Source: Escherichia coli (GTDB lineage: Bacteria; Pseudomonadota; Gammaproteobacteria; Enterobacterales; Enterobacteriaceae). From it: a DNA stretch of 12,968 nt. Every line of letters starts with the position of its first letter. Position 1 is the first letter of the stretch. The stretch is taken from NCBI RefSeq assembly GCF_003334355.1, contig NZ_QOWP01000052.1; one strand, given 5' to 3'. Positions 1 to 12,968 of this stretch are shown piece by piece. The translations under genes and the position numbers were made by a program. The notes under the pieces were generated by a model. It saw nothing but the letters and a program-made list of their open reading frames with translations, had not been told where the DNA came from and did not search any database.

Positions 1-125
1 TGCAGTTGCCATGTTTTACGGCAGTGAGAGCAGAGATAGCGCTGATGTCCGGCAGTGCTTTTGCCGTTACGCACCACGCCTTCAGTAGCGGAGCAGGAAG
101 GACATCTGATGGAAATGGAAGCCAC
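1..125 (-). CDS. insA: IS1 InsA (transposition repressor / N-terminal transposase part), 5' portion only; partial at window edge
   Basis: Minus-strand translation from GTG (complement of 123-125) gives [42 protein letters not shown], the InsA zinc-finger N-terminus (CxxC...CxxC), recalled from memory. The gene runs off the window start. Confidence 0.8.
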
Positions 126-180
126 GCAAGCACCTTAAAATCACCATCATACACTAAATCAGTAAGTTGGCAGCATTACC
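1..180 (-). mobile_element. IS1 insertion sequence, left (IRL/insA) end; element continues beyond the window start
   Basis: Reverse complement of 1-180 reads GGTAATGCTGCCAACTTACTGATTTAGTGTATGATGGTG... (the IS1 left inverted repeat) followed by the insA start and coding sequence. The terminal inverted repeat maps to 158-180, with the element boundary at 180/181. Confidence 0.9.
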
Positions 181-691
181 CGCCAATATATCCGCCGCCC
201 AAAATACCTAAATGCCCAGGCAATTCTTTTAGATTAAGTAATCCGGTGCTGTCATATACTCCTGGCGTGGTGGTAATTCCAGGAATTGGCGGAACCACGG
301 TTTGTGCACCGGTATTAATAAAAATTTTCTCGCCATGAATTTCCAGATTTGCCTCAGGCCGATGAACACGCAGGCTATGATTATTGATAAACTCCGCCTG
401 GCCGTCGATCACGTCGATATTGGGCATATCCGCAAGATTATGAAAATTCTTATTACGTAAAAAATTAACCACTTCATTTTTACGCTGTATGGCTCGGACA
501 AAATCTGTGTGCTGCTGTGCGTCATGAACCAATGTTTTGGTTGGGATGCAGCCGATATTAATACAGGTCCCGCCATACATTGCATTTGATTGTTCGATGA
601 GAGCCACACGCCAACCTGCTTTTGCCAGCGTGACGGCTAATGTTTTTCCAGCCTTGCCAAAACCAATAATCACTGCCTGATATTTATTCAT
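176..691 (-). pseudogene. rclA: rclA/ykgC (FAD-dependent pyridine nucleotide-disulfide oxidoreductase) truncated by the IS1 insertion; only about 171 N-terminal codons remain
   Basis: Translation from ATG (complement of 689-691) gives MNKYQAVIIGFGKAGKTLAV...GGTCINIGCIPTK...GILGGGYIGG, then a stop immediately inside the IS1 IRL. An AGGAAA Shine-Dalgarno sits upstream. The Rossmann GxGxxG motif and the redox-active CxxxxC are present, but the C-terminal ~60% of this ~440-aa family is absent. The upstream in-frame ATG at 718 is probably not the true start. Confidence 0.8.
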
Positions 692-916
692 GATGATTTC
701 CTGTCGAAACGCGTTCATTTTACATCATGACTATAGACGCAAAAGAGCAAATAACATTTCTTCACAACGCTTGATATTTTGTCTTATCGTCTGGTATTTT
801 CTTTTTCTTAATCAGAATCACAAAACAAAAATCATGATTAACTATTTGATGGTATTAGATTAGTTATTTACTAAGATTGTTGGTGTTTGTAATCAAAAAC
901 CACTCAGGAGTCTGAT
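692..916. promoter_or_regulatory. Divergent rclA-rclR intergenic promoter region (AT-rich)
   Basis: A 225-bp AT-rich spacer lies between divergently oriented start codons. By established knowledge RclR acts on the rclA promoter in this interval. Individual -10/-35 elements were not confidently placed by eye. Confidence 0.45.
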
Positions 917-6265: not shown

Positions 6266-7936
6266 TCATTTTTTCGCTCTCACCGGCATCCCATTTGCCA
6301 CAAAATATCCCGTCGTGCTCCTCGGCAGCGCTTCCTGTCCACGAATCATATCCGCTATTTTCTCGCCAATCATAATTGTCGTGGCGTTCAAATTCCCGGT
6401 GATAATCTGCGGCATAATCGACGCATCCACCACACGCAGGCCTTCTAACCCGTGTACGCGGCCTTCGCCGTCAACCACGGACATCTCGTCGTAACCCATT
6501 TTGCAGGTACCGCACGGATGGAAGGCGGTTTCGGCGTGGTTACGCACGAACTCATCGAGCTGTTCATCCGTCTGGCATTCGACACCGGGGCTGATTTCGC
6601 GGCCACGATACTGATCCAGCGCGGGTTGATGCATGATCTCGCGGGTGATGCGAATTGCGTCGCGGAACTCCTGCCAGTCCTGCTCGTGCGACATGTAGTT
6701 AAACAGAATCGCCGGATGCTGGTGCGGGTCGCGGGATTTAATCCGCACATGCCCACGGCTTGGCGAGCGCATTGAGCCGACGTGGCACTGGAAACCGTGC
6801 TCTTTCACTGCATTCGAGCCGTTATAGTTAATCGCTACTGGCAGGAAATGGTACTGAATATTCGGCCACGCAAATTCCTCACGGCTGCGAATAAATCCAC
6901 CTGCTTCAAAGTGGTTGCTGGTTCCAACGCCAGTGCCGCCAAACAGCCACTCCGCACCGATTTTCGGCTGGTTCCACCACTGCAGGGCAGGGTAGAGGGA
7001 AACCGGTTCTTTGCACTCATATTGCAGATACATCTCCAGATGATCCTGAAGATTTTCGCCGACGCCGGGTAATTCATGCACCAGCGGAATATCAAACTCC
7101 GCCAGCAGTTCAGCGTTGCCGACGCCGGAGCGTTGCAGGATCTGCGGTGAGGCAATCGCGCCTGCACATAACAGCACTTCTTTGTTGGCCGTTGCGCGGG
7201 TTGGGATGGTGCTGTCGCCTTCCAGCCATTCGACGCCCACCGCGCGTTTGCCGTCAAAAATGATGTGATCGGTCATAGCGTGAGTACGAATGGTCAGGTT
7301 AGGACGCGATTTGGCCTGATCGAGATAGCCACGCGCGGTGCTGGCGCGACGGCCCTGCGGCGTGACGGTGCGATCCATCGGACCAAAACCTTCCTGCTGA
7401 TAACCGTTGAGATCGTCCGTGCGCGGGTAGCCCGCCTGCACGCCCGCTTCAATCATCGCTTCAAACAGCGGATTGACGCCGGGTTTGGAGGTAGTGACGC
7501 TCACCGGGCCATCACCGCCGTGATAGTCGTTTTCACCCATATCGCGAGTCTCGGCCTTGCGGTAGTAGGGCAGGCAGTCGAGGTAGCTCCAGTTCTCCAG
7601 ACCGGGTTCTTGCGCCCAGTTATCGAGATCCAGCGCATTGCCACGGATGTAGCACATGCCGTTGATCAGCGACGATCCACCCAGACCTTTACCGCGTCCG
7701 CACTCCATGCGGCGGTTATTCATAAACGGTTCAGGTTCCGTTTCATAGGCCCAGTTGTAGCGTTTACCCTGTAGCGGGAATGCCAGGGCAGCGGGCATCT
7801 GGGTGCGGAAGTCAAAGCGATAGTCCGGGCCGCCCGCTTCAAGCAGCAGCACGGAGGTATTCGGATCTTCAGTCAGACGGGTAGCGAGAACGTTGCCGGC
7901 TGAGCCGGCACCAATAATGATGTAGTCAAATTGCAA
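6266..7936 (-). CDS. betA: Choline dehydrogenase BetA (GMC oxidoreductase, FAD-dependent)
   Basis: The product starts (M)[20 protein letters not shown]..., with the FAD-binding GxGxxG motif. The start is a TTG (complement of 7934-7936) lying 5 nt downstream of a perfect AGGAGG. The track ORF to 7981 over-extends upstream into betB. Confidence 0.9.
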
Positions 7937-7949
7937 ATAAACCTCCTGG

Positions 7950-9422
7950 TTAGAATATGGACTGGAATTTAGCCATCTCAACCTGGATGGACTTCACCTG
8001 GGTGTAACTCTGGAGCGTCATCACGCCGTTCTCGCGACCAATGCCGGAGTGTTTGTAGCCGCCAACGGGCATCTCTGCCGGGGATTCGCCCCAGGTGTTG
8101 ATCCAGCAAATACCCGCTTCCAGCTGATGAATGACGCGATGCGCGCGGTTCAGGTCCGCTGTCACGATGCCCGCCGCCAGGCCGTAGTCGGTATCGTTAG
8201 CGCGGCGAATGACTTCGTCTTCCGACTCGTAGGTCAGAATGGACATCACTGGCCCGAAGATCTCTTCACGCACGATGGTCATATCGTCGCTGCAATCGGT
8301 GAACACTGTCGGTGCAACCCATGCGCCGTTATCGAAGCCATCGCCTTTCAGTACATCGCCGCCGCACAGTACGCGCGCGCCTTCCTCTTTGCCTTTGGCG
8401 ATATAGCGCAGCACGTTATCGCGATGCGGGAAGCTGACCAGCGGGCCGAAGTTAGTTTGCGGATCGAAAACGTCGCCCGCGCGAATGCGCTCAACGCGCG
8501 CCAGAATTTTCTGCTCAAATGCGGCTTTGCATTTCGCCGGAACGAAGACGCGGGTGCCATTGGTACACACCTGACCGGAGCTGAAGAAGTTTGCCATCAT
8601 GGCGATATCGGCGGCGAGATCGAGATCCGCATCATCGAAAACGATCAGCGGTGATTTACCGCCCAGTTCCATGGTCACTTCTTTCAGGGAAGAGGCCGCC
8701 GAGTTAGCCATCACTTTTTTGCCGCTGGCGACACCGCCGGTAAATGACACTTTGGCAATGCCCGGATGCTCGGTCAGATATTGCCCGGTCTCCGCGCCCA
8801 CGCCCGGCAACACGTTAAATACGCCGTCCGGCAGGCCCGCTTCGCTGTAAATTTCAGCCAGCTTTAACGCGGTAAGCGGGGTAACTTCGCTCGGTTTGAA
8901 AATCATTGCGTTGCCTGCCGTCAGCGCCGGGGCGGATTTCCACAGGGCAATCTGGATCGGGTAGTTCCATGCGCCAATCCCTGCCACTACGCCCAGCGGT
9001 TCGCGGCGGGTATACACAAAGGACGTTTCACGCAACGGGATCTGGCTGCCTTCCAGCGCCGGGATCAGCCCGGCGTAGTACTCCAGCACGTCCGCACCGG
9101 TAACGATATCGACGGTTGAGGTTTCCGAATATGCTTTTCCGGTGTCGAGGGTTTCCAGTTTTGCGAGTTCGTCATTGCGTTCACGCAGAATATCAACGGC
9201 CCGACGCAGAATACGCGAGCGCTCCATGGCGGTCATCGACGCCCAGATTTTTTGCCCCTGCTGGGCGCTTTTCACGGCGCGATCGACATCCTCGCGCCCG
9301 GCGGCCTGCACGGTCGCCAGCACGTTACCGTTGGCCGGGTTAATGGTCTCGAAGGTGCGACCGCTGGTGGCGGAGGTATAACCACCATGTATATAAAGCT
9401 GCTGTTCTGCCATTCGGGACAT
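7950..9422 (-). CDS. betB: Betaine-aldehyde dehydrogenase BetB (NAD-dependent ALDH family)
   Basis: 490-aa product [15 protein letters not shown]..., with the catalytic ALDH motifs (...ELGGKSP..., ...[13 protein letters not shown]...). The ATG (complement of 9420-9422) is preceded by a GAGGAG Shine-Dalgarno. The gene ends 13 bp upstream of the betA start. Confidence 0.9.
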
Positions 9423-12891: not shown

Positions 12892-12968
12892 GGTAATGAC
12901 TCCAACTTATTGATAGTGTTTTATGTTCAGATAATGCCCGATGACTTTGTCATGCAGCTCCACCGATT
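12892..12968 (-). mobile_element. IS1 insertion sequence, right (IRR/insB 3') end; element continues beyond the window end
   Basis: 12892-12968 reads GGTAATGACTCCAACTTATTGATAGTGTTTTATGTTCAGATAATGCCCGATGACTTTGTCATGCAGCTCCACCGATT, which is the IS1 IRR read inward. It has the same orientation as the copy at 1-180. Confidence 0.9.
12907..12968 (-). CDS. insB: IS1 InsB (transposase) C-terminal end; partial at window edge
   Basis: Minus-strand translation gives ...SVELHDKVIGHYLNIKHYQ*, with the TAA stop (complement of 12907-12909) lying inside the terminal inverted repeat, as in IS1. Confidence 0.7.
   Translation of the reverse strand, partial: SVELHDKVIGHYLNIKHYQ

Follow-up and report, generated by a model that had tools for sequence, protein, structure and literature searches.

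A junction between IS1 and a truncated rclA marks probable loss of the rclABC oxidant-defence operon in one small Escherichia coli lineage

The analysed window, a 12,968-bp stretch of the E. coli ykg/bet chromosomal region, opens inside an IS1 element that abuts a truncated rclA gene (rclA'), and this feature very probably marks the right-hand edge of a deletion, associated with IS1, by which the rclABC operon for oxidant defence was inactivated in a single small E. coli lineage. The gene order across the window is rclA' (minus strand), rclR, ykgE, ykgF, ykgG, ykgH, betA, betB, betI and betT, with IS1 copies at both ends (bases 1-180 and 12892-12968) and the window stopping inside each of them, as would be expected if it is a whole draft contig; the features at the rclA end are collected in Table 1. 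The gene loss at rclA is real, recent and lineage-restricted, and represents ordinary IS-driven decay. The remnant itself is already known, with the RefSeq annotation of E. coli PSS-12 marking the same rclA' beside IS1 as a pseudogene missing its C-terminus. The allele reveals no new mechanism, gene or system and stands as one more case among independent IS1 hits in rclA.

Table 1. Features at the rclA end of the window (positions are those of the window; a dot marks a region without strand).
Feature	Position	Strand	Remarks
IS1, insA-proximal (left) end	1-180	minus	23-bp inverted repeat at 158-180; insA start GTG at 125; element runs off the window start
rclA', truncated reactive-chlorine/HOSCN reductase gene	176-691	minus	native sequence 691-181; hybrid codon 171 (181-179); TAA at 178-176 in the IS1 repeat
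rclA-rclR divergent intergenic region	692-916	.	collinear with E. coli C; two substitutions only (721, 794)
rclR, AraC-family redox-sensing activator, intact	917-1771	plus	complete ORF, 284 aa

The initial annotation had proposed that IS1 truncates rclA at about codon 171, and comparison with full-length alleles places the break exactly. Translated on the minus strand from the annotated rclA start (the ATG at 691), the product reads MNKYQ...GILGGGYIGG and ends after 171 aa; the mechanical ORF is longer (176-718) because it begins at an upstream ATG at 718. Residues 1-170 are identical (170/170, BLASTP) to the full-length, 441-aa RclA of E. coli C, and intact rclA alleles match the window at 540 of 540 nt (100%, megablast) from 720 down to 181, where the match ends precisely. 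The native portion thus consists of codons 1-170 plus one base, so that the break falls after the first base of codon 171, within the GGGYIG NAD(P)H-binding motif, and codon 171 has become a hybrid glycine codon with its G from rclA and its GG from IS1. Two ways in which the truncation could have been misread, a full-length homologue that is naturally about 171 aa and a misplaced junction, had been raised along with it. Neither applies, since RclA is a 441-aa protein with solved structures (PDB 6KGY, 6KYY and 6KOD), and in intact genes the same frame runs on past this point as ...GGGYIG-VEFASMF....

The other side of the junction is unambiguously IS1. Read directly, minus-strand bases 180-158 (GGTAATGCTGCCAACTTACTGAT) are the 23-bp IS1 terminal inverted repeat (GGTRATG...), the InsA N-terminus is encoded from the GTG at 125, and a predicted promoter-like site on the minus strand at 173-146 fits the IS1 end promoter. 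Window bases 1-180 are 100% identical to positions 9001-9180 of the PSS-12 segment L001, which form the final 180 nt of a complete 768-bp IS1 whose insA, A6C frameshift site and insB' are all intact. The insA end of the element faces codon 170/171, and IS1 and rclA are co-oriented. Because 180 nt are identical to an IS1 copy, 511 nt are identical to rclA, and the same junction recurs in an independent complete genome and seven further assemblies, the junction is not a chance pattern.

The junction IS1 of PSS-12 (L001 8413-9180) is a mosaic relative to an IS1B copy of the same genome: the two are identical over 665 nt, and their 15 differences all lie in the last 103 nt (window 78-177), which comprise the left repeat and the first insA codons. 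A reading of this mosaic as the footprint of recombination between two IS1 copies was rejected, as at least 30 further chromosomes and plasmids carry the same 768-bp variant at 100% identity; the mosaic therefore predates the event and is uninformative on its mechanism.

The extent of the protein loss follows from the domain layout of the full-length enzyme. RclA (YkgC) is a class I pyridine nucleotide-disulfide oxidoreductase, in which Pfam assigns residues 4-301 to Pyr_redox_2, 160-234 to the NAD(P)H-binding Pyr_redox domain and 328-435 to Pyr_redox_dim. The window product shares residues 1-170 with this protein, including the FAD-binding GxGxxG motif (GFGKAG, residues 10-15) and the CxxxxC motif (C43INIGC48), but it is without residues 171-441, which hold the Rossmann domain for NAD(P)H binding, the later part of the FAD domain and the dimerisation domain, and so lacks all that hydride transfer and dimer formation require. 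The claim that the FAD-binding and CxxxxC regions remain accordingly holds for the two motifs but only in part for the FAD domain, as Pyr_redox_2 extends to residue 301. The accompanying claim, that the NAD(P)H-binding and dimerisation domains are missing, stands in full: the product ends at residue 171 inside GGGYIG, and the dimerisation domain is absent from the window ORF, as is its coding DNA from the PSS-12 locus. Because these three portions are lost, we infer, safely in our judgement, that the 171-aa fragment would be unable to act as a flavin disulfide reductase.

The window starts inside IS1, and the far side of the element is visible only in PSS-12, a close but non-identical relative isolated from human faeces in Ecuador, which is the single genome among 5,426 complete E. 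coli genomes to carry this junction in one piece (100% over 720 nt). The window and PSS-12 agree at 99.93% identity across 9.7 kb and represent close relatives but separate genomes. Within that stretch they differ only by a 1-nt indel at 2208 and by six substitutions, at 721, 4664, 5159, 6922, 6923 and 7805, which are scattered along it and include one adjacent pair (6922-6923).

In PSS-12, the annotated order is fdeC, IS1, rclA' pseudogene and rclR, and the far end of the IS1 follows the fdeC stop codon at a distance of 17 nt. Alignment with E. coli C shows that 3,328 bp (L002 5673-9000) have been replaced by the IS1, the lost segment comprising a ykgA-like HTH regulator gene, an aldo/keto-reductase fragment, rclC, rclB and rclA codons 171-441. 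The IS1 in PSS-12 is flanked by two different 9-bp sequences, GTATGAAAG and CGCCAATAT; without a target duplication, the structure points to a deletion joint and not to simple insertion. The genes rclB and rclC are missing from the PSS-12 locus, and no copy was found elsewhere on its chromosome, because a query of IS1 alone and a query of IS1 together with rclB and the 5' part of rclC returned equal numbers of matches (21 and 21). Both genes are also absent from the whole window. The initial annotation had asked whether they lie beyond the IS1 and had considered them at best separated from their promoter by it; in PSS-12, the one complete genome to carry the junction, they are not downstream as normal but have been deleted and not merely unhooked.

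From this shared junction, we infer that the genome of the window itself carries the same 3,328-bp deletion. The main alternative is that IS1 simply inserted into rclA in the window's genome, leaving the remainder of rclA, rclB and rclC intact beyond the element but disconnected from the rclA promoter, and that the 3.3-kb deletion came later; the deletion could have followed a simple insertion in this way on the PSS-12 branch only. Such a history would agree with the far side of the IS1 being out of view in the window, with the 7 positions and the additional IS1 at 12892 that set the window apart from PSS-12, and with the precedent of strain Nord1, in which both rclA halves and rclBC are retained around an IS1 at a different codon. 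We nevertheless consider it unlikely, given that no complete genome pairs this junction with a downstream rclA 3' half and that the deletion is present in the only closed genome that is identical in junction, IS1 variant and orientation.

Adjacent deletions promoted by IS1 are classically known from the gal region. Deletions of this type, or those produced by recombination between IS1 copies, in E. coli and Shigella share with the PSS-12 locus a single IS1 at a novel joint, flanks drawn from sites 3.3 kb apart and no 9-bp duplication, and the PSS-12 locus does not differ from them in kind. Two routes would lead to the preferred deletion structure, namely intramolecular replicative transposition of IS1, which yields the classic adjacent deletion, or a recombination event between a pair of IS1 copies in the same orientation. 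Replicative transposition of IS1 within a molecule is documented (PMC12428005), and the two routes fit the structure equally well and are not distinguishable here.

On the other side of rclA', the regulatory half of the locus is preserved. As initially annotated, rclR is complete; it is divergent from rclA, with a gene order as in E. coli C, and its product carries precomputed Pfam hits to Cupin_6 and HTH_18, shows 98-99% identity to those of four other alleles, keeps the Cys21 and Cys89 that are invariant in their alignment, and is encoded by a sequence identical to that annotated as RclR in PSS-12. RclR is activated through oxidation of Cys21/Cys89 and induces rclABC (PMC7464077). The intergenic region is the literature-assigned target of this activation, housing the rclA promoter activated by RclR (PMC12096828, PMC7464077) together with the rclR promoter, and it is intact in the window, with predicted plus-strand promoter-like sites at 761-800.

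With regard to the function lost, the initial annotation had pointed to hypochlorite resistance. This stands to the extent that RclA, a Cu(II) reductase, is protective against HOCl in combination with copper (PMC7527725), but in the current literature the enzyme figures chiefly as a reductase of hypothiocyanite (HOSCN) and of Cu(II) (PMC9335216, PMC7527725). RclA reduces HOSCN with very high efficiency, requiring C43 and C48 (PMC9335216), and HOSCN is its best-supported substrate. Additionally, rclB and rclC null mutants are HOSCN-sensitive (PMC12096828). Since rclB and rclC would be gone along with rclA, the entire output of the RclR regulon appears to be lost, and the lineage is predicted from its sequence to be a natural rclABC null that retains the sensor, with hypersensitivity to HOSCN and to HOCl (with copper), the former at least as much as the latter. 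As such, the lineage, comprising a human faecal isolate from Ecuador and a few sequencing runs, could provide natural controls for studies of oxidant defence in the gut or airway.

The target promoter of RclR would then drive only rclA' and, by read-through, the insA gene of IS1. The insA GTG lies 51 nt beyond the rclA' stop codon, and no terminator-like site was found between the two; given this spacing and the co-orientation of rclA' and IS1, transcripts from the RclR-activated promoter should enter insA. IS1 transcription reportedly increases when transcription from upstream crosses insAB' (PMC12428005). The promoter, fused through 511 nt of rclA' to an intact insA-insB', might in this manner allow neutrophil-type oxidants (HOCl or HOSCN) to raise IS1 transcription and perhaps transposition, giving an oxidant-inducible mutator, although we regard this as a highly improbable outcome. 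That the arrangement is functional and maintained, either through a useful activity of the 171-aa fragment or through selection for an oxidant-inducible, RclR-driven IS1, would draw on the same co-oriented, terminator-free layout, on the reported effect of upstream transcription and on the intact rclR and promoter region, but is extremely doubtful. The remnant carries zero substitutions relative to the E. coli C allele, and because it shows none relative to intact alleles the event is recent, leaving the remnant too young for any signal of selection; moreover, the fragment is without its NAD(P)H-binding and dimerisation domains, the allele is very rare, and InsA is a repressor, with frameshifting limiting the amount of transposase (PMC12428005).

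The distribution of the allele among public genomes agrees with the lineage-specific loss put forward initially. The exact 171-aa product was found on eight public contigs in total, namely PSS-12 and seven Logan contigs of 10-20 kb; one of these contigs (L008, from ERR10766742) ends 25 nt past the rclA' stop codon, within IS1, and the others with the same product also stop at IS1. Although both window ends lie inside IS1, as is typical of draft contigs, an assembly artefact in which the contig end collapsed onto a repeated IS1 to create an unreal rclA junction has a negligible probability, given the base-exact same junction in a complete chromosome with an annotated pseudogene, the seven independent Logan contigs with the exact product, and a breakpoint inside a unique gene that repeat collapse is unable to create.

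Among the 5,426 complete genomes, an rclR query had any match in 5,141 and was at least 80% covered in one place in 5,133; the corresponding numbers were 5,145 and 5,116 for rclA, and 5,138 and 5,046 for a query joining the 3' part of rclA with rclB and rclC. The whole rcl locus is missing in about 5% of complete genomes, and a broken operon with rclR kept occurs in far fewer. A search with the junction of the fdeC flank and IS1 showed that many genomes carry an IS1 elsewhere within the 3' end of fdeC, with matches joined from separate pieces dominating the results.

IS1 was found in or beside rclABC in about 20 chromosomes, and several IS1 events resemble the window allele in having IS1 in rclA with rclR intact. 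Nord1 (L005) carries a simple IS1 insertion after rclA nt 759; in XJ55 (L004), rclA is cut after nt 939 by an IS1-bounded deletion reaching ecpR; and in TKEC21-59 (L006) and two matching genomes, rclA breaks off after nt 432 beside a deletion that extends into fdeC. Two of the three named strains thus have IS1-bounded deletions towards fdeC/ecp, as does the locus in PSS-12. However, they differ from the window allele in their breakpoints and deletion extents, and the window junction (codon 170/171, with the fdeC 3' flank end seen in PSS-12) is common only to PSS-12. Because breakpoints and deletion extents differ, the other IS1-rclA alleles are taken as independent events. All of the IS1-rclA events found are co-oriented with rclA, but this orientation was fixed by the query and supports no conclusion on bias. 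An IS insertion in rclA has also been described in the K-12 derivative ER2796 (PMC4444293).

Separately from these chromosomal alleles, a complete rclA without rclR, rclB or rclC was observed on about 150 E. coli plasmid records, many of them from pigs and poultry. Such plasmid copies weigh against a complete loss of rclA in PSS-12, which is deduced from its chromosome. In plasmids pCUPF09A and p89_MLI108-3 (L009 5001-6326 and L010 3186-4511), this rclA is flanked by IS1 copies, and in one plasmid it adjoins copper-resistance genes. From its flanks, the plasmid gene looks like a mobile IS1-flanked cassette, possibly linked to the Cu(II) reductase role of RclA.

Other IS1 features were noted near the locus. 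In PSS-12, downstream of the region covered by the window (L003 3267-5903), an IS1B joins yahD directly to a prpD that is without its N-terminus, which suggests a second IS1-bounded deletion in this genome, spanning yahE to prpC and lying some 17 kb away from the rclA junction. At the other end of the window, bases 12892-12968 are the first 77 nt of the insB-side end of a second IS1, oriented like the IS1 at 1-180. This copy lies in the AT-rich spacer between betT and pdeL, about 170 bp ahead of the pdeL start, where it could alter pdeL expression. It is absent from PSS-12, and its exact junction at 12892 was found in no complete genome, with 24 genomes having IS1 nearby in the same spacer. 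The two directly repeated IS1 copies enclose about 12.7 kb (rclA'-rclR-ykgEFG-ykgH-betABIT), and this bracketed block is a ready substrate for recombination between the IS1 copies, at the cost of rclR and of the bet genes for osmoprotection, or for movement in the manner of a composite transposon.
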